Origin: a virus
Virus record (IMG/VR): IMGVR_UViG_3300032144_000009
Coordinates: 1 to 63,344 of that record
Length of the DNA: 63,344 nt
Direction: 5' to 3' (one strand)
The translations under genes and the position numbers were made by a program. Each line of letters starts with the position of its first letter. The first letter of the stretch is position 1. Below the pieces are notes generated by a model. It searched no databases and was not told the DNA's origin. It was given only the letters and a program-made list of their open reading frames with translations. Shown in pieces: positions 11,864-63,344 of this stretch.

Positions 11864-12112
11864 ATGGTCGAAACTCACAACCCAAGCCCTCAGCAAGTGT
11901 TCGACGATACTTACGTGTCGACCATGGAGATCTGCGAAGAAATGGGCGTCAACCGTGCAAGCGTGACGAACGCCATCAAACGGAAGTTTCTACCCGCTCC
12001 AATCGTGGTCAGCCACTCCCACATGCACCTCTGGGTTCGCAGGGAAATCCGACCTATCTTGGACGCGTGGAAACTGGTCCTCAAAGCGAGACAAGCCAAG
12101 GAAACTGCATGA
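11864..12112 (+). CDS. Small HTH DNA-binding protein (excisionase/MerR-like fold)
   Basis: YVSTMEICEEMGVNRASVTNAIKRKFLPAPIVV...HLWVRREI. The stop overlaps the primase ATG (ATGA). The start position is uncertain. Confidence 0.55.
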   Translation: MVETHNPSPQQVFDDTYVSTMEICEEMGVNRASVTNAIKRKFLPAPIVVSHSHMHLWVRREIRPILDAWKLVLKARQAKETA

Positions 12113-14535
12113 CAGACCCGGTGAGCGCGTGGATGCGCTTGCCTGAGGAGCTGCGTTGGGCGCGACAGTGGGTTGTCGCGGGTCCTGACAAGGCACCTTA
12201 CACGGCAAACGCGAATGGGCAGTTGTACCGCGCAAGCGTCACAGACCCGTCAACATGGTTGGACTTTGATACCGCGTGTGCGTATGCGGTTGCGAACGGG
12301 GCAGGCATCGGGTACGTGTTGCACGAACTCGACCCGTACACCTGTATCGACTTGGATGTCAAGGACGCACAGAATGCGCCCGACAAACCCGAGCTCTGGA
12401 CTACCCCGGAACAACTCAACAAATACTGGTCAATCTGCCAGTCGTTGAACTCCTACACGGAGACCTCGCGTTCGGGCAAGGGCTTGCACGTGTGGGTGAG
12501 GGGCAACATCGGTGCAGGTCGCAGACGCGGTGGCATTGAAATCTACTCACGCGAGCGGTTCATCATCTGCACGGGTGAAGTCGTTATCAACGTTCCCATC
12601 GCTGACCGGCAGGACGCCCTTCAGTTGTTCGTTGATGAGCTCACAGCGCTCAACCGCAGGGAAGGGATCTCCGAAGGCGTTGTTGCTGATCAAGAAGACG
12701 TGCACGACGATGCGGAGATTATCGAACGTGCGCTGAACGCTGCCAACGGCGCCAAGTTCCATGCGCTGTGCTGCGCTACCTCGTGTGAAGGCGAGGGTGA
12801 GGACAAGGTGCACGGGTCTTACACGGAGCTGGGCTACACGTCGCAATCCGAAGCTGACTTGGCGCTCATGTCCATGTTCACCTTCTACTCGCGTTCGAAC
12901 GAGCAATGCAAACGCTTGTTCCGCATGACAGGCTTGGGCAAGCGTGCCAAGGCCACACGTGACGACAAGTATCTCGACCGCACCATCCAAGGCAGGCGCA
13001 AGTTCCAATTCAACGAAGAGCAAGCGGCCAAGCACGGTGAGAACCAAGCGGCCGCAATCCTTGCCAGCGCGCGTGGGCTGGTTGACAAGCTCAACGCTCA
13101 GGGCGCTGCTGCACTGGGCATCGCAAGGGTGGAAGAGCCCGCTCCAGGCCCGCAGGGGCCGACCAGTGCGGCGATGGTTGCTTCCATGGTGCCCAAGCGG
13201 GACACGGAAGATAGCTCGCTGGAATGGCCCCCTGGGTTCATGGGCGCCATTGCGAACTTTATCTACTCCTCGGCGCCGCGCCCTGTCAAAGAAGTCGCAA
13301 TCGTTGCAGCGCTTGGACTGGTTGCTGGCATCTGCGGTCGCACGTGGCTGTTACCACAATCAGGGCTCAACCTGTATGTGATCCTTGTTGCACGGTCAGC
13401 GATCGGCAAGGAAGCAATGCACAGCGGGATTTCCATCCTGTTGTCCAAGCTCATGCAGACGTTCCCGCAGGCTTCGCAGTTCGTTGACTTTGCGGACTTT
13501 GCGTCTGGCCCAGCGTTGCAGAAGGCGGTCGCTGCCAACCCGTGCTTCGTCAACGTTGCAGGTGAGTTCGGTAAGAAGCTTTCGCGCCTGGCTAAGGAGA
13601 ACGGTGAGGGGCCCATGCAGCAGCTCCGCACGGTCATGACGAACCTGTACCAGAAGAGCGGGCCCACCAGCATCGTTGGCGGTATCACCTACTCGAACAA
13701 GGACGGGAACATTGCGTCCGTGTCTGGCGTGTCGTACAGCATGATCGGTGAGACCACACCCAGCACGCTCTACGAGTCGCTCACCGAGTCCATGATGTCG
13801 GACGGCTTCCTTTCCCGCTTCAACATCATTGAATACAAGGGCAAGCGCCCACCGCAGAACTACAATCAGCAGCTTGAGCCTGACTCCGCGCTTGTGGACC
13901 ACTTGCGGGGCCTAGTTGCATACAGCGCGGACTTGCAGAATCGCCCCGCAGCCCGCATACAGATTCAGCGCGACACCGAAGCGGGCGACATGCTGCACGC
14001 GTTCGACGTGGAATGCGATGGGGAGATCAACAGCACGGACGACGAAGGTGTGCGTCAGATGTGGAACCGTGCCCACCTGAAGGTCTTGCGCATCGCGGGC
14101 CTGCTTGCTGTTGCAGACAACCCTGCCAACCCGTGGATGACACGCGAATACGTCACGTGGGCGCTCTCCGTTGTGCGCAAGGACATACAGATGATGCAGA
14201 CACGCATGGGTGAAGGTGACGTCGGTGTGGACGACGACTCGCGTGAGAAGAAGATCATGAACGTGATCAAGGACTACCTTCAGTTCGGTGCAGGCCCTGG
14301 GTACAACATCAACCCCTCGTTGCAGTTCGCTGGCATCGTGCCACGCAAGCTGCTGCAGATGCGTGTGTCGCGCCTCACCGCGTTCTACTCACACAAGCTG
14401 GGTGCCAACGTTGCCCTTGACGGTACCATCCGCAACCTGATTGACACAGGGCGTCTTGTCGAGATGGACAAGACGAAGCTGATCACGGACTACGGCGCCC
14501 ACGGCAAGTGCTACCGCGTTTTGGACCTCACTTAA
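12109..14535 (+). CDS. AEP-family primase-polymerase fused to a DUF3987-like NTPase/helicase domain
   Basis: 808 aa. CIDLDVKD, GKGLHVWVRG and GIEIYSRERF are prim-pol motifs. LNLYVILVARSAIGKEA is P-loop-like. Confidence 0.8.
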   Translation: MTDPVSAWMRLPEELRWARQWVVAGPDKAPYTANANGQLYRASVTDPSTWLDFDTACAYAVANGAGIGYVLHELDPYTCIDLDVKDAQNAPDKPELWTTPEQLNKYWSICQSLNSYTETSRSGKGLHVWVRGNIGAGRRRGGIEIYSRERFIICTGEVVINVPIADRQDALQLFVDELTALNRREGISEGVVADQEDVHDDAEIIERALNAANGAKFHALCCATSCEGEGEDKVHGSYTELGYTSQSEADLALMSMFTFYSRSNEQCKRLFRMTGLGKRAKATRDDKYLDRTIQGRRKFQFNEEQAAKHGENQAAAILASARGLVDKLNAQGAAALGIARVEEPAPGPQGPTSAAMVASMVPKRDTEDSSLEWPPGFMGAIANFIYSSAPRPVKEVAIVAALGLVAGICGRTWLLPQSGLNLYVILVARSAIGKEAMHSGISILLSKLMQTFPQASQFVDFADFASGPALQKAVAANPCFVNVAGEFGKKLSRLAKENGEGPMQQLRTVMTNLYQKSGPTSIVGGITYSNKDGNIASVSGVSYSMIGETTPSTLYESLTESMMSDGFLSRFNIIEYKGKRPPQNYNQQLEPDSALVDHLRGLVAYSADLQNRPAARIQIQRDTEAGDMLHAFDVECDGEINSTDDEGVRQMWNRAHLKVLRIAGLLAVADNPANPWMTREYVTWALSVVRKDIQMMQTRMGEGDVGVDDDSREKKIMNVIKDYLQFGAGPGYNINPSLQFAGIVPRKLLQMRVSRLTAFYSHKLGANVALDGTIRNLIDTGRLVEMDKTKLITDYGAHGKCYRVLDLT

Positions 14536-16104: not shown

Positions 16105-16608
16105 ATGCGTGTCACCCTGCTAGCTGACGCCTCCTTCTGCCCCAACACCAGAATCGCTGGGTACGGGTTCTGGATTGCGGCTGCACGGGGCAAGCTACCC
16201 GGCCACGGTGTCTTCAAGACGCTGTGCCGGGACAACGTGGTCGCAGAGATGCGCGCCATCGTGTACGCGATGCGTGCGGGTATGCAACACGGTGTCATCC
16301 AGAAGCATGATGAGCTGCTGATTCAAGTAGACTGCTTAGCAGCCATATCCGCGTTCGACGGTTCTCGAACTGAGCTCAACGAAGAGGAGAAAGCAGTCCA
16401 CAGATACTTCAAGGACCTCAAGAGGCAAGGCAGTTTTGAAATCGAGTGGCGGCATGTGAAGGGCCACTCCTCAACCACAGACGCACGGTCCCTGTCGAAC
16501 AACTCATGCGACAGACGTGCACGACGCGAAATGCGCAAAGCGCGTGACGCATTCCTACTCAAGGAGAACGAAGATGCAAAACAAGCACATCCTGACGCTT
16601 CTGCGTGA
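16105..16608 (+). CDS. RNase H (RNase HI-like)
   Basis: The D-E-D-H-D pattern is present: LLADASF, VVAEMRA, IQVDCLA, VKGH, SCDRRA. Confidence 0.75.
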   Translation: MRVTLLADASFCPNTRIAGYGFWIAAARGKLPGHGVFKTLCRDNVVAEMRAIVYAMRAGMQHGVIQKHDELLIQVDCLAAISAFDGSRTELNEEEKAVHRYFKDLKRQGSFEIEWRHVKGHSSTTDARSLSNNSCDRRARREMRKARDAFLLKENEDAKQAHPDASA

Positions 16609-17179
16609 GGACTACACCACTGTGCAGGTCATCATGGGCCAGCACAGCCTGCGGGGTTTCCAAGCTGACGCCATCGCGCATGCCAACGTCAAGGCCTATC
16701 GCGACTACCAAGTTGCAGCGGTCGAATCGTTGCAAGACCCTGCACCCTGGCAGCGCACCGTCGTCAACGGGCAGCCCGACCGTCCGAGCCGTGCGTCCCC
16801 GCACAAGCTCTACACGTACAAGGCCAAGAAGTCGCTGGGCCTGCAAGTCGGCCAGACCGTCATGGTGGAACGCGACGACATGCTCGCGTTCGCTACCGTG
16901 GTCAAGGTACACGACGTTCCCGAGATCGACCTGGACGCGCCGTTCGATTACAAGTGGATCGTCAACAAGGTGGACCGCGCCGAGTACGACCGCACGCTGG
17001 TCGAAGAAGCGAACTTCATGCAGCTGGCACGCGCCGCCGAACGCGAGCACCAGCGGGAGCTGCTGAAGGGCAAGTTCATGGAGCACCTGCCAGCCGACAG
17101 CATCGGGCGCAAGCTCTTTGACGAAGCGGTGGCCAAGTTGCAGGCCGGCCAGCTGGCTGCCCCGGGAGCGGCACAATGA
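16574..17179 (+). CDS. Hypothetical protein (201 aa)
   Basis: ATG at 16574 is preceded by AAGGAGA. It overlaps the RNase H 3' end by 35 nt. Confidence 0.6.
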   Translation: MQNKHILTLLREDYTTVQVIMGQHSLRGFQADAIAHANVKAYRDYQVAAVESLQDPAPWQRTVVNGQPDRPSRASPHKLYTYKAKKSLGLQVGQTVMVERDDMLAFATVVKVHDVPEIDLDAPFDYKWIVNKVDRAEYDRTLVEEANFMQLARAAEREHQRELLKGKFMEHLPADSIGRKLFDEAVAKLQAGQLAAPGAAQ

Positions 17180-17955
17180 AGGACATCATCAAGGTCCTCG
17201 ACCACGGGTTCGTCAAGCTGCGCAACATCGCGGGTCCGACTCGGCGCACGTTCAACCCGATCGATCCAGCGCAGCCCAACAACTGCGGCACGGAGCGGCC
17301 TTTCGACGCAGACGACACCGACGTCGCCAACGCTGCGCGTCTGTCCTTCGAAGGGCAGGACCAGGACCGCACGTACGACACGGAGATGAAGCTCAACCGC
17401 TACCTCCTCGTCAACAAGCACATGACGCCGTTCGAGACGATCGTTGTGTGGCTCGAGATGAAGCTCCCGATCTTCGTCGCCCGCCAGTTGGTACGGCAGC
17501 GCACGCAAACCATCAACGAGGCGTCGGCACGGTACATCCAACTCCCTGCTGAGTGGTACATCCCTGAGCTTGCGGATGTGCTCATCCAGTCCAAGGACAA
17601 GAAGCAAGGTGGCAAGCCCATCGACCTCAACGACCCTGTGCAGGTTGACGCGGGCGAGCGGTACCGCATGCGCCTCCAGGCCAACTGCGAGCTGTCTTAC
17701 CGCTCGTACGAGCAATCCATCGCTGACGGTATTGCGATGGAACAGGCACGCCTCGAGCTGCACGTCAACCACTACACGCACTGGATGACGACGATGAGCC
17801 TGCGCAACCTGTTCATGTCGTTCCTGGTACTGCGCGACCACAGCCACGCGCAGATCGAATCACAGCAATACGCACGAGCGACCATCCAACTCCTGGAACC
17901 GCACCTCCCCGGGCTGATGGACCTTTACAAGCTAGTTCTCAAGGAGCTTCAATGA
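17176..17955 (+). CDS. thyX: Flavin-dependent thymidylate synthase ThyX
   Basis: N-terminal VLDHGFVKLRN and the ThyX signature variant RQLVRQRTQTINEASARY. ATGA coupling on both sides. Confidence 0.85.
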   Translation: MKDIIKVLDHGFVKLRNIAGPTRRTFNPIDPAQPNNCGTERPFDADDTDVANAARLSFEGQDQDRTYDTEMKLNRYLLVNKHMTPFETIVVWLEMKLPIFVARQLVRQRTQTINEASARYIQLPAEWYIPELADVLIQSKDKKQGGKPIDLNDPVQVDAGERYRMRLQANCELSYRSYEQSIADGIAMEQARLELHVNHYTHWMTTMSLRNLFMSFLVLRDHSHAQIESQQYARATIQLLEPHLPGLMDLYKLVLKELQ

Positions 17956-18143: not shown

Positions 18144-18346
18144 ACACTCAATGCCCTCGCTGCCTGAGCAGCAGCTTCAAACCTGTGATGACGGACTTCG
18201 GCAAGGGTTGCGAGTTCTGTAAGGACTCGACGGTCATGCGTACAAGTGGCCTGACAGATAGCACCCATTACGTGAGCGTCAAACCGCTTGCGTCGGACAA
18301 CGTGATCCCGCTGCACGGCAGCCACGCAACGAGGGCCGCAGAATGA
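18140..18346 (+). CDS. Zinc-ribbon protein (68 aa)
   Basis: ATG at 18140 (ATGA overlap). CPRC ... CEFC. Confidence 0.55.
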   Translation: MNTQCPRCLSSSFKPVMTDFGKGCEFCKDSTVMRTSGLTDSTHYVSVKPLASDNVIPLHGSHATRAAE

Positions 18347-19284
18347 AACCGATGCTCGCAGATGACTACGTCGAGTCGAAACTCAAGTTCCCGCTGCTCG
18401 TGCAGCCGAAGATCGACGGGGTGCGTGCCCTCAACATGCTCGGTACGCTTACCGGCCGCTCCGGTAAGCAGCACGCGAACCGCTACACGACGCAGCTCTA
18501 CAGCGATCCTGAGCTGATGGGTCTTGATGGTGAGCTTGCCGCTGGACCTGAAACGCATTCCGATCTGTGTCGCATGACCACAAGTGCTCTCAATCGTATC
18601 GAGGGTCAGCCTTTCACGCTCTGGTGGCTGTTCGACTGGGTTGGCGAACTCACCAAGGACCTGCCCTACATCAAGCGTTACGAGATGCTCTGTGAGCGGG
18701 TTCGGCAGCTCCAACTGGTGTACGCACATCAGCGTTACGGCAGCCTGCGCGTCGTGCCGAGCAGGCTGGTGCACACGCTGGACGAGCTCAACGAGATCGA
18801 CGCACAGCATCTGGCTGAAGGATACGAAGGATCAATCCTGCGCGATCCCAACGGCCTCCACAAGCAAGGACGCAGCACTCCGACCGAAGGCGGACTGTTG
18901 CGCGTGAAGAGGTTCATCGAGGAAGAAGCGGTCGTCGTAGGGATTGAGGAAGGGCAATCCAACCTCAACGAAGCAACGCTGGACCCGCACGGGTACACGG
19001 AGCGCAGCACGCATGCTGAGAACATGGTGCCGAACGGGCTGGTCGGCAACTTGCAATGCAAGCTCTGCAAGGATGTTCGTGTCGATGGCAAGTTGATCAT
19101 GATGCAGAACCAGCTCATCACGGTTGCAGCGGGTCGGCTGGATCATGCCGAACGCAAACGCTACTTCGAGAACCAGCACGAGATCATTGGCAAGACGATC
19201 AAGTTTCAGTTCTTCCCCAAGGGTATCAAGGACAAACCGCGCTTCCCGACCTTCCAGAGTTTCCGCGCAGATAGCGATATCTGA
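18343..19284 (+). CDS. ATP-dependent DNA ligase (minimal T7-like type)
   Basis: The adenylation motif is PKIDGVR, followed by EGSILR and LLRVKRF. Confidence 0.85.
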   Translation: MKPMLADDYVESKLKFPLLVQPKIDGVRALNMLGTLTGRSGKQHANRYTTQLYSDPELMGLDGELAAGPETHSDLCRMTTSALNRIEGQPFTLWWLFDWVGELTKDLPYIKRYEMLCERVRQLQLVYAHQRYGSLRVVPSRLVHTLDELNEIDAQHLAEGYEGSILRDPNGLHKQGRSTPTEGGLLRVKRFIEEEAVVVGIEEGQSNLNEATLDPHGYTERSTHAENMVPNGLVGNLQCKLCKDVRVDGKLIMMQNQLITVAAGRLDHAERKRYFENQHEIIGKTIKFQFFPKGIKDKPRFPTFQSFRADSDI

Positions 19285-23770: not shown

Positions 23771-23799
23771 TTGACACAGTTCAATCAGTCTCCTACAGT
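23771..23799 (+). promoter_or_regulatory. Sigma70-type promoter TTGACA-17-TACAGT
   Basis: Read directly. It lies 47 nt upstream of the ATG at 23846. Confidence 0.6.
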
Positions 23800-23845
23800 A
23801 CAACTCATGCGCAACACGGTGTTGCGCACAAACAGGAGAAACGAA

Positions 23846-24424
23846 ATGAACGCAGCTAACACCACCTTCAAGTCCTACAGCGAAAAGAGCAAGGCCAAGC
23901 GCGCTCTCAAGGGCAAGATGGAAGAGAACATGATCGAAGGTGTCCTGGTGCAGGTCGACGGCAAGTGGGGCTTCTACGTCAACGAAGACGGCACCCCCGC
24001 TGGCAGCAACAACGTGGACCAAGACGGTGTCGAAGTTACCGGCGAGCAAGTCTCCAACGAGACTTCTGTCGAAGATCAGAAGCAAGCAAGCGCATTCGGT
24101 GCTTTCGCACTGGGTCAGCTGACCGGCAACGGTGCAGCGCAAGTCCCGCAATCGGCCAAGACCGAAACCGTGGTTCGCGCTGAAGGTACCGGTCGCGGTA
24201 TCGAAAAGAACCGTCCGACGCAGAACGGTATCACCCGTCCGAGCATCGGTGGCCTCTGCCGCGCAGTGTGGGACGCTTGCGATGTGCTGCGCGCCAACGC
24301 ACCGGACAACGTGGTCACCGCCAAGATGGTCAAGGCCCACGCCGAGACCCAAGGCTGGAACCCGAACAACGCGTCCATCGAGTTCTACCAGTGGCGCAAG
24401 TTCAACGGCATCACCGGCAAGTAA
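23846..24424 (+). CDS. Hypothetical protein P1 with the C-terminal QNG..RP...G.C..W...WRKFNG domain (paralog of 26037-26564)
   Basis: AGGAGA RBS, 192 aa. The C-terminus is QNGITRPSIGGLCRAVWDACD...FYQWRKFNGITGK. Confidence 0.7.
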   Translation: MNAANTTFKSYSEKSKAKRALKGKMEENMIEGVLVQVDGKWGFYVNEDGTPAGSNNVDQDGVEVTGEQVSNETSVEDQKQASAFGAFALGQLTGNGAAQVPQSAKTETVVRAEGTGRGIEKNRPTQNGITRPSIGGLCRAVWDACDVLRANAPDNVVTAKMVKAHAETQGWNPNNASIEFYQWRKFNGITGK

Positions 24425-25950: not shown

Positions 25951-25959
25951 CTTTGCAGT

Positions 25960-25988
25960 TTGCAAGAACCCTCGTTTGCCGCTACAGT
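25960..25988 (+). promoter_or_regulatory. Sigma70-type promoter TTGCAA-17-TACAGT
   Basis: It has the same -10 hexamer and spacer length as the promoter at 23771. It lies 49 nt upstream of the ATG at 26037. Confidence 0.55.
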
Positions 25989-26036
25989 GCAATCACGTCA
26001 ATCAAGACGCTTTTATCAACCACAGGAGTGAACACC

Positions 26037-26564
26037 ATGTCCGAAAAGACCCCCGAACAAGTTGCTGCCGAAAAGGCTGCGAAGGCCGAAGCTGCTGCGG
26101 CTGCCAAGGCAGAGAAGAAGGCTGCGGCTGACGCTGCGAAGGCCGAGAAGGCGAAGGCTGCTGCTGACGCCAAGGAAGCCAAGGCCAAGGCTGCTGCTGA
26201 TGCGAAGGCTGCCAAGGAAGCCGATGCGAAGGCCAAGGCCGATGCGAAGGCCAAGGCCAAGGCCGATGCCGAAGCGGCCAAGCAAGCCTCGCGCATGCCC
26301 GAGCAGAACGGCGTCCGCCGTCCCAAGGCTGACGGTCTGTGCGGCAAGGCCTGGGCCATCTTCGATCAGGTGTCGCAGAAGCGCGGTGCCCCTGCGTCGA
26401 TCGGTGAGTCGATGGAGATCGCCAAGGCCCAGAACCTGAACGAGGCCAACGTGCGCGCCGAGTACGCCCGCTGGCGCAAGTTCAACGGCGTGGTCGGCCG
26501 CGTCGACAACCCGACGGCTGTGAAGCCTGTCGCGCCCGAAGCCAACGCCGGCGCCGCTGCGTAA
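26037..26564 (+). CDS. Hypothetical protein P3: Ala/Lys/Glu/Asp-rich helical region plus the P1-type C-terminal domain
   Basis: AGGAG RBS, 175 aa. AAEKAAKAEAAAAAKAEKKAAADAAKAEKAKAAADAKEAKAK... is followed by QNGVRRPKADGLCGKAWAIFD...YARWRKFNGVVGR. Confidence 0.7.
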   Translation: MSEKTPEQVAAEKAAKAEAAAAAKAEKKAAADAAKAEKAKAAADAKEAKAKAAADAKAAKEADAKAKADAKAKAKADAEAAKQASRMPEQNGVRRPKADGLCGKAWAIFDQVSQKRGAPASIGESMEIAKAQNLNEANVRAEYARWRKFNGVVGRVDNPTAVKPVAPEANAGAAA

Positions 26565-26672: not shown

Positions 26673-27404
26673 GTGATCAATCTCCAACCGATCGAGAAGC
26701 TTTCCAAGAACAATTCTGATCTCGAGGTGCACAGCATCTTTGAGACCATCCAAGGGGAAGGGCCCTTCTGTGGCGTCCCTTGTGTCTTTGTTCGGCTCAG
26801 TGGCTGCAACTTGCAGTGCCCCGCGTGTGATACCGAGTACACCTCCTCGCGCGTGCTGATGAGTCCGAACACGGTTGTCGGTCACGTGGAATCCCTGCGC
26901 CCGAACGGGCTTGTCGTGATCACCGGTGGCGAACCTTTCCGTCAACCTGTTGCCTTGACACGTTTGCTCGAAGAGCTGGTGGGCGCAGGGTACTACGTGC
27001 AGATCGAGACGAACGGCACGCTCCCTGCGCCGAGTCTGGATGAGGTCGAGTACAACACGGACCCAGTGCAGAAGCATGGTGTCTACGTCGTGTGCAGCCC
27101 CAAGACGCATCAAGTGCAGGAATCCGTTCAACAGGTTGCCTTCGCCTATAAGTACGTGATGTCCGCCAGCAGCGTTGACCCTGCGGACGGGCTGCCCGTG
27201 CAGGTGCTTGACCACCCGGTTGTCGGCCGTGTCTGGCGCCCTTACTGGCATGACTTCCAGAACGACACGTTGATCTACCTTCAACCCGCGGAAGCCGGAA
27301 CGCCGTTCATCTCGGAGATGAATCTCACCGCATGCGTCGAGTCGTGCATGAAGCACGGGTACACGCTGCAACTTCAAATCCACAAGCTGATCGGAGTCGC
27401 CTGA
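26673..27404 (+). CDS. queE: 7-carboxy-7-deazaguanine synthase QueE (radical SAM)
   Basis: The GTG start is preceded by GAGGTG. IFETIQGEGPFCGVPCVFVRLSGCNLQCPACDT carries the CxxxCxxC cluster. Confidence 0.9.
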   Translation: MINLQPIEKLSKNNSDLEVHSIFETIQGEGPFCGVPCVFVRLSGCNLQCPACDTEYTSSRVLMSPNTVVGHVESLRPNGLVVITGGEPFRQPVALTRLLEELVGAGYYVQIETNGTLPAPSLDEVEYNTDPVQKHGVYVVCSPKTHQVQESVQQVAFAYKYVMSASSVDPADGLPVQVLDHPVVGRVWRPYWHDFQNDTLIYLQPAEAGTPFISEMNLTACVESCMKHGYTLQLQIHKLIGVA

Positions 27405-28843
27405 TGTGCTCAGTCTTTGGTGCCCTGGTGCATGTCACCACCGCTAGCGGTCTGGCCGAAGCCAACCGGATCCTGAAGACGCTGTACGAACGCAGCCATG
27501 AGCGTGGGCGTGATGGGCGCGGCTGGACACTGCGGTGGCGAGACTACGAAGACAAGATGGACGTCACGTCGCACCGCTCTGTCGAGAGCGCAAGCGACCG
27601 CCATATCGGCAAAGCACCTCACCTGCACGTGCTGACGGAGAGCGCTGTGCTCGTTGGGAACATGCGCGCAGAACCGACGACCGAGTTCATCAAGCGTAAG
27701 GCAGTGCACGACCAGCAACCTTATGATGTCGGTCGCTGGTCGGTTGTGCACAACGGCACGATTGCGAACGACAAGAAGCTGCGCGTGCTTGATGTCCCGC
27801 ACCCGTCTGCTATCGACAGCGCAGTGATCCCTGAGTTGCTTGCACAAGCTGACCGAGATTTCGGTACCAGCAACGCGACCGACCACGGGAAGTTCAAGTC
27901 GGTCGTGTCACAGTTGCGGGGCAGCTACGCAATCCTGGCCGCCACACACGATGTGGATCAGATTCTGGTCGCTTGCAATTACCGTCCGGTGTGGTATATC
28001 GAGACGCCTGTCGGTTTGTTCTTCGGCAGCACGCGTCGTTCGTTCCCAAGCGAGTACACGCCGAAGATGGTTGAACCGTACACGGTCAACCTGTTCCGGT
28101 TCAGTGAAGGGCGCGCCAAGATCAACCGCTTCACAACCAACTACCGTGACCCGAGCTTCGGGGCGCGTGCCCTGGTTGTGTGCAGCGGCGGCCTAGACAG
28201 TGTGGTCAGCGCGACCCAGGCTCAGGCCATGGGGTACCACATCGAACTGATTCACTTCCTGTACGGAAGCCGTGCGGAAGGTCCTGAGGTGAAAGCGGTG
28301 CAAGCGGTCGGTAAGGCGCTCAACTGCAAGGTCACGCTCTTCCCGCTTCCCGTGTACAGCAAGAAGGACTCGCCTCTGCTGGATCCCGACAGCAAGGTGG
28401 CTGGGGGCGAAGCTGGGGCCGAATTTGCCCACGAGTGGGTACCCGCCAGGAACCTGCTGCTTTTGAGCGTTGCAACGGCCTACGCCGAGGCCAACGGGTT
28501 CGAGACGCTTGTGCTGGGCAACAACCTCGAGGAAGCTGGTGCCTACCCTGACAACGAACCGGAGTTCATCGACAAGTTCAACGACCTGCTACCGTTCGCC
28601 GTTGGTGACGGGAAACGCCTGCGCGTTATCATGCCCGTCGGCAACATGATGAAGCACGAGATCGTGAAGCTGGGCCTCCGCAACGGTGCACCCATGCATC
28701 TGACTTGGAGCTGCTACCGTGCGGGTGAGCTCCACTGCGGTACCTGTGGCCCTTGCTTCATGCGTCGCACCGCTTTCGAAATCAACAACGCAACCGAGGT
28801 CATTGAGTATGCCGATCAAGTCGACAAAGACGTTCACGCATGA
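27404..28843 (+). CDS. queC: Gat-QueC fusion: class II glutamine amidotransferase plus 7-cyano-7-deazaguanine synthase
   Basis: It starts MCSVFG (Cys2 nucleophile) and has HNGTIAN. The QueC half has the PP-loop VVCSGGLDS and the Zn cluster SCYRAGELHCGTCGPC. ATGA overlap with queE. Confidence 0.85.
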   Translation: MCSVFGALVHVTTASGLAEANRILKTLYERSHERGRDGRGWTLRWRDYEDKMDVTSHRSVESASDRHIGKAPHLHVLTESAVLVGNMRAEPTTEFIKRKAVHDQQPYDVGRWSVVHNGTIANDKKLRVLDVPHPSAIDSAVIPELLAQADRDFGTSNATDHGKFKSVVSQLRGSYAILAATHDVDQILVACNYRPVWYIETPVGLFFGSTRRSFPSEYTPKMVEPYTVNLFRFSEGRAKINRFTTNYRDPSFGARALVVCSGGLDSVVSATQAQAMGYHIELIHFLYGSRAEGPEVKAVQAVGKALNCKVTLFPLPVYSKKDSPLLDPDSKVAGGEAGAEFAHEWVPARNLLLLSVATAYAEANGFETLVLGNNLEEAGAYPDNEPEFIDKFNDLLPFAVGDGKRLRVIMPVGNMMKHEIVKLGLRNGAPMHLTWSCYRAGELHCGTCGPCFMRRTAFEINNATEVIEYADQVDKDVHA

Positions 28844-29267
28844 GACAGGGTTGTCTTCGTGCTTCCGCCAATGGCGTGCACAGAGCCATTGCAGGCACTT
28901 GCACGGGTACGCTTTGCAAGTGAAGTTCACGTTCGGTTGTGACGCGCTGGATGTGCGCAACTGGTGCGTGGACTTCGGCAGCATGAAGAGCCTCAAGAGC
29001 TGGCTCGAGGATACGTTTGACCACACCCTTCTCGTGGCCGAGGACGATCCGCACAAGGACCTTCTGTGCTCGCTCGCAGGGCTTGATATCTGCCGTGCAG
29101 TAGTTGTGCCTGCAACCGGGTGCGAAGCGTTCGCCAAGCTCATCTTCGAGTGTGCACAGATCTGGTTGAAGGACAACGGGTACGCGCCACGCTGCTGGGT
29201 TCACAGCGTGGAAGTGTCTGAACACGGCGCGAACAGCGCCATCTATGAAACGGAGACAGTGGTATGA
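28809..29267 (+). CDS. queD: 6-carboxy-5,6,7,8-tetrahydropterin synthase QueD
   Basis: MPIKSTKTFTHETGLSSCFRQWRAQSHCRHLHGYALQVKF...DHTLLV. The ATG at 28809 overlaps the gat-queC 3' end. Confidence 0.85.
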   Translation: MPIKSTKTFTHETGLSSCFRQWRAQSHCRHLHGYALQVKFTFGCDALDVRNWCVDFGSMKSLKSWLEDTFDHTLLVAEDDPHKDLLCSLAGLDICRAVVVPATGCEAFAKLIFECAQIWLKDNGYAPRCWVHSVEVSEHGANSAIYETETVV

Positions 29268-29848
29268 GCGAAGGGCGGAAGTTGCATCAGATCGAACTGA
29301 ACGACATCGAGGAAGCAACGCAAATTCTTTTGCGTGCGGTGGAACCGGATTGTGATCGCGAGGGTTTGACTGAAACCCCTGAGCGGGTCTCCAAAGCTTG
29401 GGCATTCTGGACGCAAGGCTACGGCATGCGTGCAGCGGACATCTTGAAGTCGTTCGAGGACGGCGCTAGTGACTACGACCAGATGGTGAGCGTGGTCAAC
29501 ATCCCAATCTACTCGAAGTGCGAACACCACCTCGCTGACATCATCGGCTCCGCAACCATTGCATACATCCCGAACGGCAAGATTGTGGGGTTGAGCAAGC
29601 TGTCGCGCCTTGCGGATATGTACGCGCGGCGCTTGCAAGTGCAGGAGCGCATGACGGTGCAGATCGCAGACGCGCTGGTGGAGCACCTGCAACCCTTGGG
29701 AGTCGGTGTGCTGATCAAGGCGCGCCATATGTGCATGGAGTCGCGTGGCATCTGCCAACAAGGACACCACACGGTGACGACGGCACTCCGCGGTGTCATC
29801 AAGGACGAACCTCAGACTCGTGCCGAGTTCTTGCGATTGGCGCAGTGA
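29264..29848 (+). CDS. folE: GTP cyclohydrolase I FolE
   Basis: GLTETPERVSKAW and the SKCEHHL motif. Confidence 0.9.
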   Translation: MSEGRKLHQIELNDIEEATQILLRAVEPDCDREGLTETPERVSKAWAFWTQGYGMRAADILKSFEDGASDYDQMVSVVNIPIYSKCEHHLADIIGSATIAYIPNGKIVGLSKLSRLADMYARRLQVQERMTVQIADALVEHLQPLGVGVLIKARHMCMESRGICQQGHHTVTTALRGVIKDEPQTRAEFLRLAQ

Positions 29849-30495
29849 CCGGGTAGAATAGCGCTATGCAGATCATAACTTGCAAAGACGCTAGAGCGGT
29901 CGGTTTGAAACATTACTTCACGGGTAAACCTTGCAAACGCGAACATATTGATTTTCGTTATGTCAGTGGCGGATGTGCGGAATGTGCTCGTGAAGATGCA
30001 CGCCGCTATTACAGTGACAATCCCGAAAAGTACAAACAACTCACGGTTCAATACCGCGAACTGAATCGCGGTAAGTGCAATGAGATACAACGTAACTATT
30101 ACGAGCGAAACGCTGCAAAAATCAAAGCAGAAGCGAGCACCTACCGGGGTTTACGAGCGCTTCGCGTTCCTGCATGGTCAGAAACGGAACTTATTGAAGA
30201 GTTCTATGTAAACTGTCCAGAAGGATATGAAGTCGATCACATTCTGCCCCTACAAGGAAAGACGGTTTCAGGTTTGCATGTCTTTGCGAATCTTCAGTAC
30301 TTGCCGAGAAAAGAGAACCGCGCTAAACATAATAAGGTTCTGCTATGAATATCTATATGGCTGCGCTCTATACAAACGGTTATAGACAAGGGCAAAACAG
30401 ATATGTGAAGCTCACGGATCATGAACGCAAATTAGTTCAAGCGGTCCCTGACGTATTGGAATCATGGCATTATGTTGGAAAACAGCGTTATGTCG
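29849..30495 (+). mobile_element. Low-GC patch holding the HNH gene and roughly the first 50 codons of dpdA
   Basis: My hand counts give about 44% GC over the first 120 nt of the HNH gene and about 41% over the first 150 nt of dpdA. The flanking sequence is clearly GC-richer. Confidence 0.45.
29866..30348 (+). CDS. HNH endonuclease (free-standing, homing type)
   Basis: EVDHILPLQGKTVSGLHVFANLQYLPRKENRAKHNK. It is visibly AT-richer than its neighbours. Confidence 0.8.
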   Translation: MQIITCKDARAVGLKHYFTGKPCKREHIDFRYVSGGCAECAREDARRYYSDNPEKYKQLTVQYRELNRGKCNEIQRNYYERNAAKIKAEASTYRGLRALRVPAWSETELIEEFYVNCPEGYEVDHILPLQGKTVSGLHVFANLQYLPRKENRAKHNKVLL

Positions 30496-31265
30496 ACGAG
30501 ATGCGAGCTGACGGAGCATCCATCTTCCTCGACAGCGGTGCCTTCTCCGCGTTCACTCTTGGTGTCGAACTTTCCGTCGCCGAATACTGCGAGTACATCC
30601 ATCGCAACCGTGACATCCTGCGCGTCGAAGACGGGGTCGTTATGGCATCGGTCCTTGACGGAATCGGCGACCCACTCCAGACGTGGCGCAACCAGTACGA
30701 GATGGAGCTGCGCGGCGCCAAGCCGCTCCCGTGCTTCCACGCGGGGGAGGATGAGCGCTATCTTGAGCACTATGTTGCGAACTACGAATACATCACACTC
30801 GGCGGTATGGTGGGTTCCAGTACGAAGCAGCTCTGTATCTGGCTGGATCGTATCTGGGACCGATTTCTCACAGATGGAAGCGGTCGTCCACGACTCAAGG
30901 TGCACGGGTTCGGGATCACGGCCATTCCCATCATGGAACGATATCCGTGGTATTCGTGTGACTCTTCATCGTGGATCCAGTCAGCAGCCTTCGGGTCGAT
31001 TGTCACGCCCCAACACGGTCCTCTCAGTGTATCCACGAAGTCACCCAGTCGACACGATGCTGGCCAGCATGCCACCACGCTGACGCCACTCGAGCAGGAC
31101 TACGTGTTCCGCATGCTCGAGGAACAAGGGTTTACCTACGAACGTCTCTCAACCGTGTACGAGTCCCGTGCAGCGTACAATCTGTGGGCATTCGGCGTCA
31201 TTAACACGATGATGAATGCACAGAATAACGAACGGTTCAAAGCACGAGTACAGGAGCTCTTCTAA
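30345..31265 (+). CDS. dpdA: DpdA, DNA-guanine transglycosylase (TGT superfamily)
   Basis: IFLDSGAFSAF, ITLGGMVG, VHGFGIT and SCDSSSW motifs. It sits next to the preQ0 pathway genes. Confidence 0.8.
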   Translation: MNIYMAALYTNGYRQGQNRYVKLTDHERKLVQAVPDVLESWHYVGKQRYVDEMRADGASIFLDSGAFSAFTLGVELSVAEYCEYIHRNRDILRVEDGVVMASVLDGIGDPLQTWRNQYEMELRGAKPLPCFHAGEDERYLEHYVANYEYITLGGMVGSSTKQLCIWLDRIWDRFLTDGSGRPRLKVHGFGITAIPIMERYPWYSCDSSSWIQSAAFGSIVTPQHGPLSVSTKSPSRHDAGQHATTLTPLEQDYVFRMLEEQGFTYERLSTVYESRAAYNLWAFGVINTMMNAQNNERFKARVQELF

Positions 31266-31519
31266 TGGCTACAGTCGAAGAACAACGCGCGCTGGCTGCG
31301 GAATTCGCGGTCCCGATTCTCACAGTCAAGAAGGTACTGGAAGAGAACGGCGACGACGTGGAAAAGGCACGCAAGCGCCTTACCGTGTTGACGACCCCCA
31401 TCGACACGCGCATCGCCAAGCTCGAGGCCGAGAACGAGCGTCTGCTCGCTGCCAACGTGACGCTCAACCAGCGCATCCAAGCGCTGGAAGACATGCACAA
31501 CCAAACTGACGTCGTGTAA
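31265..31519 (+). CDS. Small protein with an EF-Ts-N/UBA-like helix bundle plus a coiled coil
   Basis: LAAEFAVPILTVKKVLEENGDDVEKARKRL resembles the TS-N/UBA pattern (KKAL.E..GD.E.A...L). TAATG coupling on both sides. Confidence 0.45.
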   Translation: MATVEEQRALAAEFAVPILTVKKVLEENGDDVEKARKRLTVLTTPIDTRIAKLEAENERLLAANVTLNQRIQALEDMHNQTDVV

Positions 31520-32472
31520 TGCTCAAGGAACTCAAGTTCGTGATGGGCGCGGTAGCGAAGAAGGACTTCCTGCCAGCACTGACCCACTTCCGTATCGAGA
31601 ACGGTCGTGTGCGTGGGTTCAACGGTACGCTGGCGCTATGCTCGCCCATAGCGTTCGACATCGACTGCACTCCCAAAGCCGACTCCCTCGTGCGTGCGAT
31701 CCGGCAGTGCGACGATACGGTGGCCCTGTCCATGACGAAGGCAGGACGCCTGAGCGTGCGCAGCGGTGGCTTCAAGACCTTCATTGACTGCGTTGACACC
31801 GAGACACCACACGTCGAACCGACCGGTACCGACTTCCAGTTTGATGGTGAAGTGTTCCTGAAGGGCATCAAGGCCATTGCGCCCTTCATCGGTGACGACG
31901 CTTCGCGTCCGTGGTCGAATGGCATCCTGTTGCGTGGTCAAAGCATGTTCGCCACCAACAACGTGACGCTGATCGAATACTGGGCTGGTTCCAACTTCCC
32001 GATCGAATGCTGCCTGCCCTCGCCCGCAATCAAGGAAGTGCTGCGTATTGACGAAGCGCCGACACACGGGCAGGCGGATGACCACAGCCTCACGCTGCAC
32101 TTCTCTGATGGTCGCTGGGTGCGTACGAACCTGCTCAGTACCGAGTGGCCGGACTTGAGCAAGGTGTTTGACGTCGAGTCGAGCCCTACCGCCATCAACC
32201 CCGCTATCTTCGAAGGCCTGCGCAAAGTCAAACCCTTCGTGGACAAGATCGGTCGCATATACTTCCAGGAGGGTGCGTTGTGCACCTCGCTTGAAAAAAA
32301 CGAAGGTGCAACCGTGGAAGTCGATGGGTTCGCAGAAGAGGGGTCATACCAGATCGAGATGCTGGCGCTACTCGAAGGGGTAGCCGAGCGTATCGATTGG
32401 AAGCTTTATCCGAGGCCCGCCATGTTCTTCGGGGACCGTGTGCGAGGGGCAATCGTCGGTCTGAGAATGTAA
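31519..32472 (+). CDS. DNA polymerase sliding clamp (DnaN/beta-like)
   Basis: 317 aa. FLPALTHFRIENGRVRGFNGTLAL, GILLRGQSMFATNNVTLIEY and STEWPDLSKVF resemble beta-clamp repeats. It lies directly upstream of the polymerase. Confidence 0.6.
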   Translation: MLKELKFVMGAVAKKDFLPALTHFRIENGRVRGFNGTLALCSPIAFDIDCTPKADSLVRAIRQCDDTVALSMTKAGRLSVRSGGFKTFIDCVDTETPHVEPTGTDFQFDGEVFLKGIKAIAPFIGDDASRPWSNGILLRGQSMFATNNVTLIEYWAGSNFPIECCLPSPAIKEVLRIDEAPTHGQADDHSLTLHFSDGRWVRTNLLSTEWPDLSKVFDVESSPTAINPAIFEGLRKVKPFVDKIGRIYFQEGALCTSLEKNEGATVEVDGFAEEGSYQIEMLALLEGVAERIDWKLYPRPAMFFGDRVRGAIVGLRM

Positions 32473-34511
32473 TGGCTCGTGCAGATGCGCTAGGGATGTT
32501 CTGGTTCGACGAGCCAGTCGTCAAGCAGCTCAAGGAAAAGCCTCCGAAGCGCACACCGCCGGAGCGCACCTGGGAGCAGCCCGGATACTTGCCCGGCCTT
32601 GCTGAGGCCCGTGCTTTCAACAAGCACATCATGACCGACGAGGAGCTGCTGCAAGCGTGTGCGAACCGCGAGCGGCTGCGCTTCGACATCGAGTGTTATG
32701 AGAATTACTTCCTGATCGCTTTCATGTCCGAGCGTACCGGCTGGGTGTGGTTCTCAGAGATGCGCCCCGGTACCGAGCTCGACATCAACCGCGTCGGTTG
32801 GATCATGACCAACTTCACGGTCGTGGGGTTCTATAGCAAGAACTATGACATCCCGATGGCGTCCCTTGCGCTGGCGGGCAAGAACTGCGCGGAGCTCAAG
32901 CAGGCGACATACGACATCATCGTTGCCGAGCAGCGCCCGTCGGACGTGCTTCGTGTGCACAAGGTCAAGCAACTGAAGTGCGACCACGTTGATCTGATCG
33001 AGGTTGCGCCGCTCTATGCGTCGTTGAAGATCTACGGGGGTCGGTTGCACTGCAAGCGAATGCAAGACCTGCCCTTCCACCCTGACACATGGTTGTCGGA
33101 AGACCAGATTGCAATCGTTCGTTGGTACTGTATCAACGACTTGTCGAATACCGGGCTGCTAGACGAGGCGTTAGCCGAACCGCTGGCGTTGCGCACAGCA
33201 ATGAGCCAGCAGTATGACATGGACCTGCGTTCGCGCAGTGACGCGCAGATTGCTGAGCATGTGATTGCGTCGGAGATTCAAAAGCTGACCGGCTCGCGCG
33301 CAGCCCCTCCGAAGATTGCCCCAGGTACCGTCTACAAGTACAACGTCCCCCACTTCCTGCAATTCAAGAGTGACCTGCTCAACTGGGCGCTCAGCACTGT
33401 GTATCACGCGGACTTCGTTGTCGCCGAGCACGGTGCTGTCGGTATGCCCGAAGTGATTAAAGAGCTGTCGCTGAAGATGAACGGCAGTACGTACACGATG
33501 GGGATCGGCGGGCTGCACAGCACTGAGGAGCGTGCAGCGCACGTCAGTGACAGTCAGCACACGCTCTACGACATCGACGTTGAGTCGTACTACCCGCGGA
33601 TCATCTTGAACCTCGGGTTGTACCCGAAGCACCTGGGGCAAGCATTCCTCCGCGTGTTCAACGAGATCGTTGAGAAGCGTATCGCGGCCAAGAAGAACAT
33701 GCAGGCATGTGACGAAGCTGGCGATAAGAAGGGTCGAGCTCACTGGAAGGTCATTACCGAGTCGCTCAAGATTACGATCAATGGCGCCTACGGTAAGCTC
33801 GGGTCCATGTTCAGCGTCATCTATGCGCCCGACCTGTTGATCCAAGTGACGCTCACTGGTCAGTTGTCCCTGCTGATGCTTATCGAGCGTCTGGAGTTCG
33901 CAGGCATTCCGTGCGTGAGCGCCAATACGGATGGTGTGGTCATCAAGTGTCCGAATCACTTGCGTGACACCATGAACGCCATCGTTGCACAGTGGCAGCG
34001 CGACACTGGGTTCAAGACTGAAGAGACCCAGTACGACGCAATCTATTCCGCGAACGTCAACAACTACATCGCGGTCAAAGCGAAAGGCAAGGGTCTGAAG
34101 ACGAAGGGTGTGTACGGCAACCCGTGGTCGAAGAAAGACTTCCGGGAAATGCTGTCGAAGAACCCTGTGACCACAATCTGCATGGACGCGGTGGAGGCGC
34201 TGCTGCTGCACAAGAAGCCGCTCGCAGAAACGATCTGGGAATGCAAGGACATCACCAAGTTCATCGCGGTACGCAAGGTGAACGGGGGTGCAGTGCAAGC
34301 GGGCGAGTACCTCGGTGCGTCGATTCGTTGGTACTACTCAACCGAGGAACGCGGGGAGATGGTTGCAGCCAAGAGCGGGAACAAGGTGCCAATGTCTGAC
34401 GGTGCGAAACCGTGCATGACGCTACCGGAGGAGTTTCCGACTGACATCGACTACGACTGGTATCTGGCACGGTGTGTGCGTACCCTGAAGGAAATCGGAT
34501 ACTACGTCTGA
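32472..34511 (+). CDS. Family B DNA polymerase with 3'-5' exonuclease
   Basis: Exo motifs are FDIECYE, GFYSKNYDIPM and YCINDL. Pol motifs are DIDVESYYPRII, KITINGAYGKLG and SANTDGVVI. Confidence 0.85.
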   Translation: MARADALGMFWFDEPVVKQLKEKPPKRTPPERTWEQPGYLPGLAEARAFNKHIMTDEELLQACANRERLRFDIECYENYFLIAFMSERTGWVWFSEMRPGTELDINRVGWIMTNFTVVGFYSKNYDIPMASLALAGKNCAELKQATYDIIVAEQRPSDVLRVHKVKQLKCDHVDLIEVAPLYASLKIYGGRLHCKRMQDLPFHPDTWLSEDQIAIVRWYCINDLSNTGLLDEALAEPLALRTAMSQQYDMDLRSRSDAQIAEHVIASEIQKLTGSRAAPPKIAPGTVYKYNVPHFLQFKSDLLNWALSTVYHADFVVAEHGAVGMPEVIKELSLKMNGSTYTMGIGGLHSTEERAAHVSDSQHTLYDIDVESYYPRIILNLGLYPKHLGQAFLRVFNEIVEKRIAAKKNMQACDEAGDKKGRAHWKVITESLKITINGAYGKLGSMFSVIYAPDLLIQVTLTGQLSLLMLIERLEFAGIPCVSANTDGVVIKCPNHLRDTMNAIVAQWQRDTGFKTEETQYDAIYSANVNNYIAVKAKGKGLKTKGVYGNPWSKKDFREMLSKNPVTTICMDAVEALLLHKKPLAETIWECKDITKFIAVRKVNGGAVQAGEYLGASIRWYYSTEERGEMVAAKSGNKVPMSDGAKPCMTLPEEFPTDIDYDWYLARCVRTLKEIGYYV

Positions 34512-63138: not shown

Positions 63139-63344
63139 TCACAACCCGCTAGACTTCTCGATCAGCTGAGTGAGCAGCATCGTCTGCGTCACAACCTCGT
63201 CGAGCTCAGCGTCGAGAGAGGTTTGTGCAGCAAGGCGCGCTGCATCCATCATCTCGCGGTTCTGTATCATCGCCGCGGAATAGAAGTTGTTGCACGCTGC
63301 TTCGCGCTTCGAACGCAGGGAGTTGATGCGGACTTGACAGTCCG
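63139..63344 (-). CDS. 3' portion of the junction-spanning 79-aa ORF (63218-63344 duplicates 1-127)
   Basis: Stop TGA at 63139-63141. It is in frame with the 5' part at 1-161. Confidence 0.5.
   Translation of the reverse strand, partial: DCQVRINSLRSKREAACNNFYSAAMIQNREMMDAARLAAQTSLDAELDEVVTQTMLLTQLIEKSSGL
63218..63344. repeat. Second copy of the 127-bp terminal identity
   Basis: Identical to 1-127. Confidence 0.95.

Follow-up and report, generated by a model that had tools for sequence, protein, structure and literature searches.

The viral record IMGVR_UViG_3300032144_000009 of the IMG/VR database, analyzed here over its entire length of 63,344 nt (positions 1 to 63,344; hereafter the window), contains at positions 26673-31265 a gene cluster that very probably constitutes a complete and intact module for the modification of DNA with 2'-deoxyarchaeosine (dG+), of the kind known from the phage subfamily Queuovirinae. 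Its five enzymes, QueE, Gat-QueC, QueD, FolE and DpdA, are each identifiable and intact, carry the expected catalytic residues and are encoded in the same order as their counterparts in previously described phages. The nature of the product, the use of DNA as a substrate and a role in the evasion of restriction are predicted from the properties of orthologous systems. The proposal that the product is dG+ goes beyond the general association of Gat-QueC fusions with archaeosine (G+), because the proteins represent full-length orthologs of those in the phages 9g and Vid5, for which dG+ has been proven by liquid chromatography-tandem mass spectrometry (LC-MS/MS).

Gene content and predicted pathway

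The cluster comprises six open reading frames (ORFs), all on the plus strand, and all five pathway genes among them are intact. The first gene, queE (26673-27404), uses a GTG start codon and encodes a predicted radical-S-adenosylmethionine (SAM) 7-carboxy-7-deazaguanine synthase of 243 amino acids (aa). It is followed by gat-queC (27404-28843), whose 479-aa product combines a class II, N-terminal nucleophile (Ntn) glutamine amidotransferase domain (Gat) with QueC, by queD (28809-29267; 152 aa), encoding a predicted 6-carboxytetrahydropterin synthase of a non-canonical subtype shared with Iggy, MiCath and Rhizobium phages, and by folE (29264-29848; 194 aa), which encodes a type 1 GTP cyclohydrolase I with the motif CEHH. 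A free-standing ORF for an HNH endonuclease (29866-30348; 160 aa) lies between folE and dpdA (30345-31265; 306 aa), whose product is a predicted DNA guanine/7-deazaguanine transglycosylase of the DpdA1 type. Adjacent genes overlap by 1 nt (queE/gat-queC), 35 nt (gat-queC/queD) or 4 nt (queD/folE and HNH ORF/dpdA), and a 17-nt gap separates folE from the HNH ORF. Overlaps of 1 nt run on from dpdA through an 84-aa ORF and a sliding-clamp gene to a DNA polymerase gene, so that the modification genes are translationally chained into the replication module. All gene boundaries were the same in independent calls on the identical Logan contig SRR9694932_405512.

The original prediction had described this region as a set of five translationally coupled genes. 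All five are indeed present and intact at these positions, and the overlaps exist, but the HNH ORF had not been listed, and the chain of coupled genes is broken by the gap downstream of folE. Each of the motifs quoted at the time was found again, including CNLQCPAC in QueE, MCSVFG, HNGTIAN, SGGLDS and the four-Cys site in Gat-QueC, CEHH in FolE, and FLDSGAFS and HGFG in DpdA. The arrangement queE-queC-queD-folE-dpdA corresponds to that published for the Queuovirinae (PMC10484667) and, with the clamp and polymerase genes included, to that observed in 9g, PaMx25, CAjan, MiCath, Iggy and Vid5. Both the architecture and the gene order are already known, as they define this ICTV subfamily and are represented by dozens of phages in RefSeq, and the module does not reveal a new mechanism.

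QueE, with the cysteine cluster C45-x3-C49-x2-C52 that had first pointed to its identity, matched the Pfam model Radical_SAM above its cut-off (1.3e-7) and PHROG 2076 ('QueE-like') over its full length (1.4e-52). Its top five NCBIfam matches were QueE models (1e-22 to 1e-13), all with scores under the respective cut-offs (80.7 vs 300), and it is 46-52% identical to the QueE proteins of 9g (49%), PaMx25, CAjan and Vid5. FolE was recognized by the Pfam model GTP_cyclohydroI (9.5e-66, 221 bits) and by the NCBIfam models NF006825 (2.6e-66, 222.5 bits; cut-off 174) and TIGR00063 (206.5 bits; cut-off 181.6), and it shares 58-76% identity with other phage FolE proteins. The matches of FolE to GTP_cyclohydroI, of QueD to Pfam PTPS and of DpdA to PHROG 887 all agree with the initial assignment of these proteins as FolE, QueD and a member of the tRNA-guanine transglycosylase (TGT) superfamily, respectively.

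In the proposed pathway, FolE would convert GTP to dihydroneopterin triphosphate, from which QueD would generate 6-carboxytetrahydropterin (CPH4) as the substrate for the formation of 7-carboxy-7-deazaguanine by QueE. The QueC half of Gat-QueC, with its PP-loop ATPase and zinc site, would then produce 7-cyano-7-deazaguanine (preQ0) by way of the amide. DpdA would act after replication and exchange guanine for a 7-deazaguanine base at short motifs in double-stranded DNA, using Asp206 as the nucleophile and Asp63 as the general acid/base, whereas the Ntn glutaminase of Gat-QueC, with Cys2 in its active site, would supply glutamine-derived ammonia for conversion of the nitrile to the formamidine group of G+. 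Amidination could either precede or follow base insertion, in this phage as in 9g. The modified DNA would be expected to resist many type II restriction enzymes.

Experimental reference points come from phage 9g. Its folE, queD and queE genes complement the corresponding Escherichia coli mutants, its dpdA gene alone leads to the insertion of 2'-deoxy-preQ0 (dPreQ0) into E. coli DNA, and dpdA together with gat-queC is sufficient for dG+ levels of 9-18% of G and for resistance to EcoRI (PMC6884629). The same pair of genes still yields dG+ in a ΔqueC background but not in a ΔqueD background (PMC6884629). The virion DNA of 9g contains dG+ at ~25% of G (PMC10516641), and LC-MS/MS analysis of Vid5 virion DNA has revealed 7.55% dG+ with almost no dPreQ0 (PMC8306585).

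The original prediction had also pointed to the lack of a DNA methyltransferase gene, in line with base replacement being the main strategy of DNA protection. At Pfam sensitivity, no DNA methyltransferase domain was indeed found among the genes called in the genome, based on precomputed Pfam annotations for these genes and on a search of ten ORFs from the rest of the sequence with Pfam. A further scan of 57 otherwise unannotated products returned 19 families, none of them a methyltransferase, although a very divergent enzyme may lie below the sensitivity of Pfam.

The Gat-QueC fusion and the predicted modified base

Gat-QueC had initially been described as a 479-aa fusion with the N-terminal sequence MCSVFG, the motifs HNGTIAN and SGGLDS and a CxxxxxxxCGxCxxC zinc site. 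All of these features, as well as the presence of both domains, were confirmed. The Pfam model QueC matched residues 255-460 (8e-52), covering model positions 1-208 of 210, and GATase_7 matched residues 101-213 (3e-6) with 27.7 bits (cut-off 25), whereas GATase_6 remained slightly below its cut-off (26.9 bits vs 27). PHROG 10428 spans almost the entire protein (residues 1-472; 1.5e-197). A profile built from three sequences (this phage, 9g and PaMx25) was used to search the PDB and retrieved human GFAT1 from residue 1 onward (E 1.1e-5), the glutaminase domain of E. coli GlmS (1XFF; E 4.5e-4) and the QueC structures 3BL5 and 2PG3 (E 1e-15); the isolated Gat domain gave no match in a phmmer search of the PDB. 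From end to end, the protein can be aligned collinearly with the homologs from PaMx25 (58% identity), Vid5 (53%), MiCath (50%) and 9g (48%). Its Gat domain contains Cys2, Arg88, Asn117-Gly118 and Asp138, the last three of these elements being invariant in comparison with 9g and PaMx25, and its QueC domain contains the PP-loop S261-G-G-L-D-S and the zinc site C437-x7-C445-x2-C448-x2-C451.

For an Ntn-type enzyme, the position of the start codon matters, and an amidotransferase cysteine located away from the mature N-terminus had been named as an outcome that would speak against the proposed function. At the most plausible predicted start, the cysteine is residue 2. A GGAG sequence lies 8-11 nt upstream of position 27404, and the homologs of 9g, PaMx25, MiCath and Vid5 all begin with Met-Cys. 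An alternative in-frame ATG at 27332, 24 codons upstream of MCSVFG, was rejected; it is located within queE, and both the N-termini of the homologs and the ribosome-binding site favor 27404.

Neither a stand-alone QueC nor QueF, QueF-L or ArcS was found among the called genes at the Pfam level. Therefore, Gat-QueC must also make preQ0 in this phage, as it does in 9g, and we predict, by analogy with the 9g protein, that it acts as both a preQ0 synthase and an archaeosine synthase. The same domain fusion is found in crenarchaeal Gat-QueC, an archaeosine synthase that acts on preQ0-containing tRNA, whereas the substrate context here would be DNA. Gat-QueC proteins from phages and archaea group in a single cluster of published networks based on sequence similarity (PMC6884629).

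A different outcome would be that the module mainly installs dPreQ0, or 2'-deoxy-7-amido-7-deazaguanine (dADG), with the Gat domain being inefficient or regulatory and Gat-QueC functioning essentially as a QueC. In support of this idea, preQ0 is the base that 9g DpdA itself inserts, and a certain amount of dPreQ0 appears when Gat-QueC is limiting (PMC6884629). Traces of dPreQ0 have also been detected in the DNA of Vid5 and nt-1 (PMC10516641, PMC8306585). Moreover, conservation in our alignment is much stronger in the QueC half than in the Gat half, whose Pfam scores lie close to the threshold. However, the catalytic positions of an Ntn amidotransferase are all retained, and the Gat-QueC phages measured so far are without exception dominated by dG+, with dPreQ0 accounting for no more than 0.005% of G in Vid5 (PMC8306585). 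In addition, the 250-residue Gat domain has been maintained by selection in Nonagvirus, Nipunavirus, Vidquintavirus, MiCath and Vibrio phages, arguing for its functionality. The known dPreQ0 systems CAjan and Iggy contain a plain and a C-terminally extended QueC, respectively, and no Gat-QueC, and this replacement of Gat-QueC explains why they stop at dPreQ0. We therefore regard a predominance of dPreQ0 or dADG as unlikely and favor dG+ as the main product.

A non-canonical QueD homolog

QueD is of another type than in 9g, Nipunavirus and Vid5, a feature that the original prediction had not mentioned. The protein matched Pfam PTPS (2.8e-17, 63.2 bits; cut-off 22.4) and PHROG 2389 (1.7e-41), and its best PDB sequence match was the CPH4 synthase 7V0F (E 1.7e-5), placing it among proteins with a PTPS/T-fold domain. 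With the NCBIfam QueD model, by contrast, it reached only 40.5 bits, compared to a cut-off of 89. It is 57-67% identical to the QueD proteins of Iggy, MiCath and RHph_X3_2 in local alignments that cover nearly the whole protein, whereas those of 9g, CAjan, Vid5 and PaMx25 align only locally, over 68-91 columns with 29-43% identity. Its metal-site motif, C28-R-H-L-H32-G-Y34, reads CxxxHGY in place of the canonical CxxxHGH. The zinc ligands of E. coli QueD are His16, His31 and His33; the position of His16 is occupied by Phe19 in the phage protein, which thus lacks the canonical three-His arrangement. Both CxxxHGY and Phe19 are conserved in the homologs from Iggy, MiCath, RHph_X3_2 and Pan1. Taken together, the HGY motif, Phe19 and the low NCBIfam score place the protein in a separate QueD-like subtype of phages (PHROG 2389) rather than among canonical QueD proteins. 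This subtype occurs in Iggy, MiCath, Rhizobium phages and the cyanophage Pan1. The protein has kept the catalytic Cys28, His32 and Asp71-His72 as well as the conserved Glu residues, and His11 and His27 are conserved within the subtype, so it is tempting to speculate that these two histidines serve as substitute zinc ligands. The module is mosaic, but a combination of Gat-QueC with an Iggy-type QueD already exists in MiCath.

This mosaic composition, with an Iggy-type QueD next to a Nipunavirus-type Gat-QueC, could conceivably yield some other 7-deazaguanine derivative, in place of or besides dG+, or involve another pterin intermediate. Enzymes of the COG0720/PTPS family are catalytically promiscuous, which would be compatible with such a scenario, as would the subtype-wide conservation of CxxxHGY and of the Phe residue at the His16 position. 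Furthermore, four new 7-deazaguanine derivatives were discovered only in 2023 (PMC10516641). However, the same QueD subtype is present in Iggy, with plain dPreQ0 in its DNA (PMC10484667), and, beside Gat-QueC, in MiCath. The key residues of QueD are kept, and no homologs of DpdL, DpdM, DpdN, QueF or ArcS2 were detected among the called genes. Thus, the formation of another derivative is very unlikely, and dG+ remains the expected product.

DpdA and its predicted substrate

DpdA matched PHROG 887 ('queuine tRNA-ribosyltransferase'; 7.2e-92), scored 15.8 bits against the NCBIfam DpdA model (cut-off 200) and had no match in a Pfam search. As determined by tblastn and alignment, it is 81% identical to its homolog in MiCath, followed by those of PaMx25 (80%), Vid5 (75%), 9g (72%), Iggy (69%) and CAjan (68%), and the similarity to the 9g, CAjan, Iggy and Vid5 proteins holds over the full length. 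A profile search of 1.84 billion representative sequences yielded 6147 relatives, 76 diverse ones of which were aligned. An AlphaFold2 model based on this alignment had a predicted local distance difference test score (pLDDT) of 96.4 and a predicted template modeling score (pTM) of 0.92. An earlier model based on 32 near-identical homologs was discarded (pLDDT 58.7; matches only to generic triosephosphate isomerase barrels with E > 0.01). All of the top 50 Foldseek matches of the final model in the PDB were TGTs, with archaeosine TGT (arcTGT; 1J2B) as the best hit (E 1.8e-7, probability 1.0), and the model shows the (β/α)8 fold of this family.

At the sequence level, single-sequence and shallow-profile searches against PDB sequences produced no meaningful match, and the best match of the diverse profile, the DpdA protein of Salmonella (7UI4), was marginal (E 0.089). 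In this marginal alignment, GGMV falls on GGMV, and Asp206 in the motif SxDS falls on Asp256 of the Salmonella protein, in which mutation of either Asp256 or Asp95 abolishes guanine exchange (PMC10164549). More detailed assignments are available for CAjan DpdA, whose active-site residues were assigned by modeling on arcTGT (PMC7544227). The alignment with CAjan DpdA is free of gaps through residue 225, so these assignments transfer number for number. Both the nucleophile Asp206 and the general acid/base Asp63 are present, as are the pocket residues Ser64, Phe67, Asp105, His132, Gly153-Gly154 and Phe189. All 76 diverse homologs have Asp206, and Asp63, Asp105 and His132 each occur in 90% or more of them. 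A loss of catalytic aspartates, which had been considered as evidence against the original prediction, has therefore not occurred, with Asp206, Asp63 and Asp105 all in place. Judging by its orthologs, DpdA would exchange guanine in double-stranded DNA rather than in tRNA.

That the genes instead modify tRNA with queuosine or archaeosine, or raise the supply of preQ0 or queuosine in the host for the benefit of translation, is suggested by the TGT fold of DpdA and by public annotations that name it 'queuine tRNA-ribosyltransferase', but we consider this extremely improbable, given that 9g dpdA fails to complement an E. coli Δtgt mutant and 9g gat-queC fails to restore queuosine in tRNA (PMC6884629), that DpdA is 68-81% identical to the DpdA1 group including the DNA-modifying enzymes of 9g, CAjan, Iggy and Vid5, that its 306 aa compare with 354-577 aa for the matched TGT chains, so that it lacks their C-terminal parts, that no tRNA genes were found in the whole window (ARAGORN), and that dpdA forms part of a coupled series with the genes for the clamp and the DNA polymerase. 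DNA thus remains the predicted substrate.

Several homologs of ~600-640 aa retrieved in the profile search (P0123, P0127, P0136, P0149 and P0175) matched the DpdA profile in two separate stretches. The best stretch stops at residue 205, directly before the nucleophile Asp206 (…YSC|DSS…), which suggests the presence of an intein or another large insertion at the active site of these relatives.

Expected extent and specificity of modification

The DpdA protein of CAjan targets GA and GGC (PMC7544227), whereas that of Iggy targets GA only (PMC10484667). Across the whole genome, 23.3% of G are located in GA and 6.4% in GGC, so that the predicted replacement would range from ~23% of G for an Iggy-like specificity to ~30% for a CAjan-like specificity. 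Much lower levels of substitution do occur, as exemplified by Vid5 with its 7.55% of G (PMC8306585).

Several observations weigh against the assignment as a dG+ module. The identity of Gat-QueC to the two validated enzymes, those of 9g and Vid5, is only 48-53%, and it is on this level of similarity that the protein is predicted to produce G+ or dG+ from preQ0. QueE, QueC, QueD and DpdA all score under the curated NCBIfam cut-offs, which is expected for the phage versions of these proteins yet does not amount to formal equivalog membership. Furthermore, only one of the three canonical zinc histidines is found in QueD, and no complementation assay of the CxxxHGY subtype was found in the literature searched. 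Iggy, which carries this subtype, makes dPreQ0 (PMC10484667), although CPH4 could come from its host. The HNH insertion additionally parts dpdA from direct coupling to folE. Finally, the extent of modification differs between relatives (7.5% vs 25%), and the target motifs of CAjan and Iggy differ at a similar level of DpdA identity (~68%), so that neither extent nor specificity can be predicted for this phage. There is a small but appreciable chance that the chemistry or specificity of this lineage departs from that of 9g, either because QueD uses another metal site or intermediate or because DpdA recognizes a motif beyond GA or GA plus GGC. If so, this uncultured group, which has no close cultured relative, would show a novel pattern of substitution or contain a novel minor 7-deazaguanine species.

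Relationship to known systems

Phage 9g (Nonagvirus) shares all five enzymes and their order with the present module, with identities of 72% for DpdA, 48% for Gat-QueC, 49% for QueE and 58% for FolE, as well as the Met-Cys start of Gat-QueC and the catalytic residues. It differs in the subtype of its QueD (29% identity over a 91-column local alignment; HGH vs HGY here), in an additional hypothetical gene that separates queE from gat-queC and in the absence of an HNH ORF in front of dpdA. Significant nucleotide similarity to 9g was not detected. Pantoea phage vB_PagS_Vid5 (Vidquintavirus) likewise has the same gene order and similar Gat-QueC (53%) and DpdA (75%) proteins but contains small inserted ORFs, a canonical QueD and a preQ0 transporter of the VUT/YhhQ type. 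Both CAjan and Vid5 carry such a transporter within the cluster, whereas none was detected in the whole window analyzed here. No Rfam family, including the preQ1 riboswitch, reached the gathering threshold in the window, and a search for promoters and terminators near the module gave counts no higher than shuffled expectation.

The closest proteins are found in MiCath and in the Nipunavirus phages PaMx25, NP1 and JG012 (80-81% identity for DpdA, 50-58% for Gat-QueC and 74-76% for FolE). MiCath has the same pairing of Gat-QueC with an Iggy-type QueD, and the HNH ORF between folE and dpdA recurs in PaMx25 and NP1. However, the DNA polymerases of these phages are only 52-58% identical, and nucleotide alignments cover at most 4-9% of two queried segments. 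No DNA chemistry has been published for the MiCath/Nipunavirus group in the literature searched. CAjan and Iggy share the gene order and have DpdA1 proteins of 68-69% identity with the same active-site positions. Iggy is also similar in its QueD subtype (57%) and belongs to the group with the closest large terminase subunit (TerL; 68%). The Dpd system of Salmonella Montevideo (DpdA/DpdB/DpdC; 7UI4) is more distant. Here too, a DNA transglycosylase with TGT fold employs an Asp nucleophile and an Asp general base, and GGMV and SxDS can be aligned, but the similarity is marginal (E 0.089), the phage DpdA is devoid of the large Ins8 insertion, and the DpdB ATPase and DpdC are not present in this phage.

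The HNH ORF, which matched PHROG 1035 ('endonuclease VII'; 3.8e-20), is 55% identical to gp36 of PaMx25, located in the same slot between folE and dpdA. Homologs with 54-56% identity occupy this slot in the Nipunavirus phages PaMx25, NP1 and JG012 and the Nonagvirus phages SE1 and JenP1, whereas 9g, MiCath, Iggy and Vid5 lack an HNH ORF at this site. The copy in NP1 is annotated as a homing endonuclease. Because such a sporadic and position-specific distribution across Nonagvirus and Nipunavirus is typical of homing endonucleases, the ORF probably encodes an enzyme of this kind that is not part of the pathway.

The module adds another complete example of a dG+ pathway, from a 63-kb metagenome-derived phage with only distant relationship to the cultured Queuovirinae. 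Its residual novelty lies in the target motif, the extent of modification and the product in this lineage, along with the non-canonical QueD subtype. The DNA of this phage group is likely to be resistant to many restriction enzymes and may be under-represented or called incorrectly in certain sequencing and cloning workflows. Moreover, the lineage broadens the sequence space of DpdA1 and Gat-QueC for studies of motif specificity, and it could help to settle whether amidination precedes or follows base insertion.

Genome context and neighboring genes

The window has a GC content of 57.9% and carries a perfect direct repeat of 127 nt at positions 1-127 and 63218-63344, which looks like an assembler k-mer overlap. 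Based on this terminal duplication, the sequence represents a circularly assembled, complete genome of 63,217 bp. The same genome is on record as the Logan contig SRR9694932_405512 (63,247 bp) and as a Joint Genome Institute (JGI) contig. In a megablast search against 50,697 phage records, with the module (4.6 kb) and a structural region of 24.9 kb as queries, cultured phages aligned to at most 4-9% of these two segments. The DNA polymerase is 52-58% identical to those of Nipunavirus and relatives, and TerL is 68-71% identical to those of Iggyvirus and an Acinetobacter phage. The low nucleotide coverage and these levels of protein identity therefore indicate an uncultured lineage that would rank at least as a new genus, either inside the Queuovirinae or next to them.

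Downstream of dpdA, an 84-aa ORF (31265-31519, plus strand) precedes the genes for a sliding-clamp-like processivity factor (31519-32472, plus strand; PHROG 947, 2e-74) and a family-B-like DNA polymerase (32472-34511, plus strand; PHROG 1252, 7.9e-204). The 84-aa ORF gave no match in Pfam or PHROG searches. Small ORFs are located in the equivalent slot of CAjan, MiCath, Iggy, RHph_X3_2 and Vid5, but the idea that it encodes a conserved partner was rejected, as the ORF shows no similarity to its counterparts in CAjan, MiCath, Iggy and RHph_X3_2.

Upstream of queE, two paralogous ORFs (23771-24424, 217 aa; 25953-26564, 203 aa) both match PHROGs 18634, 11298, 21588 and 17772 and have a common C-terminal '...RWRKFNG..G' domain, with the 203-aa protein containing a long low-complexity linker rich in Ala and Lys. 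In 9g, CAjan, Iggy and Vid5, the gene directly upstream of queE encodes a hypothetical protein or a 'transcriptional activator'. Farther upstream, a replication and nucleotide metabolism module (12109-14535, 16105-16608, 17176-17955 and 18343-19284) encodes an archaeo-eukaryotic primase (AEP)-type primase-polymerase fused to a DUF3987 helicase-like domain, together with RNase H, the flavin-dependent thymidylate synthase ThyX and an ATP-dependent DNA ligase.

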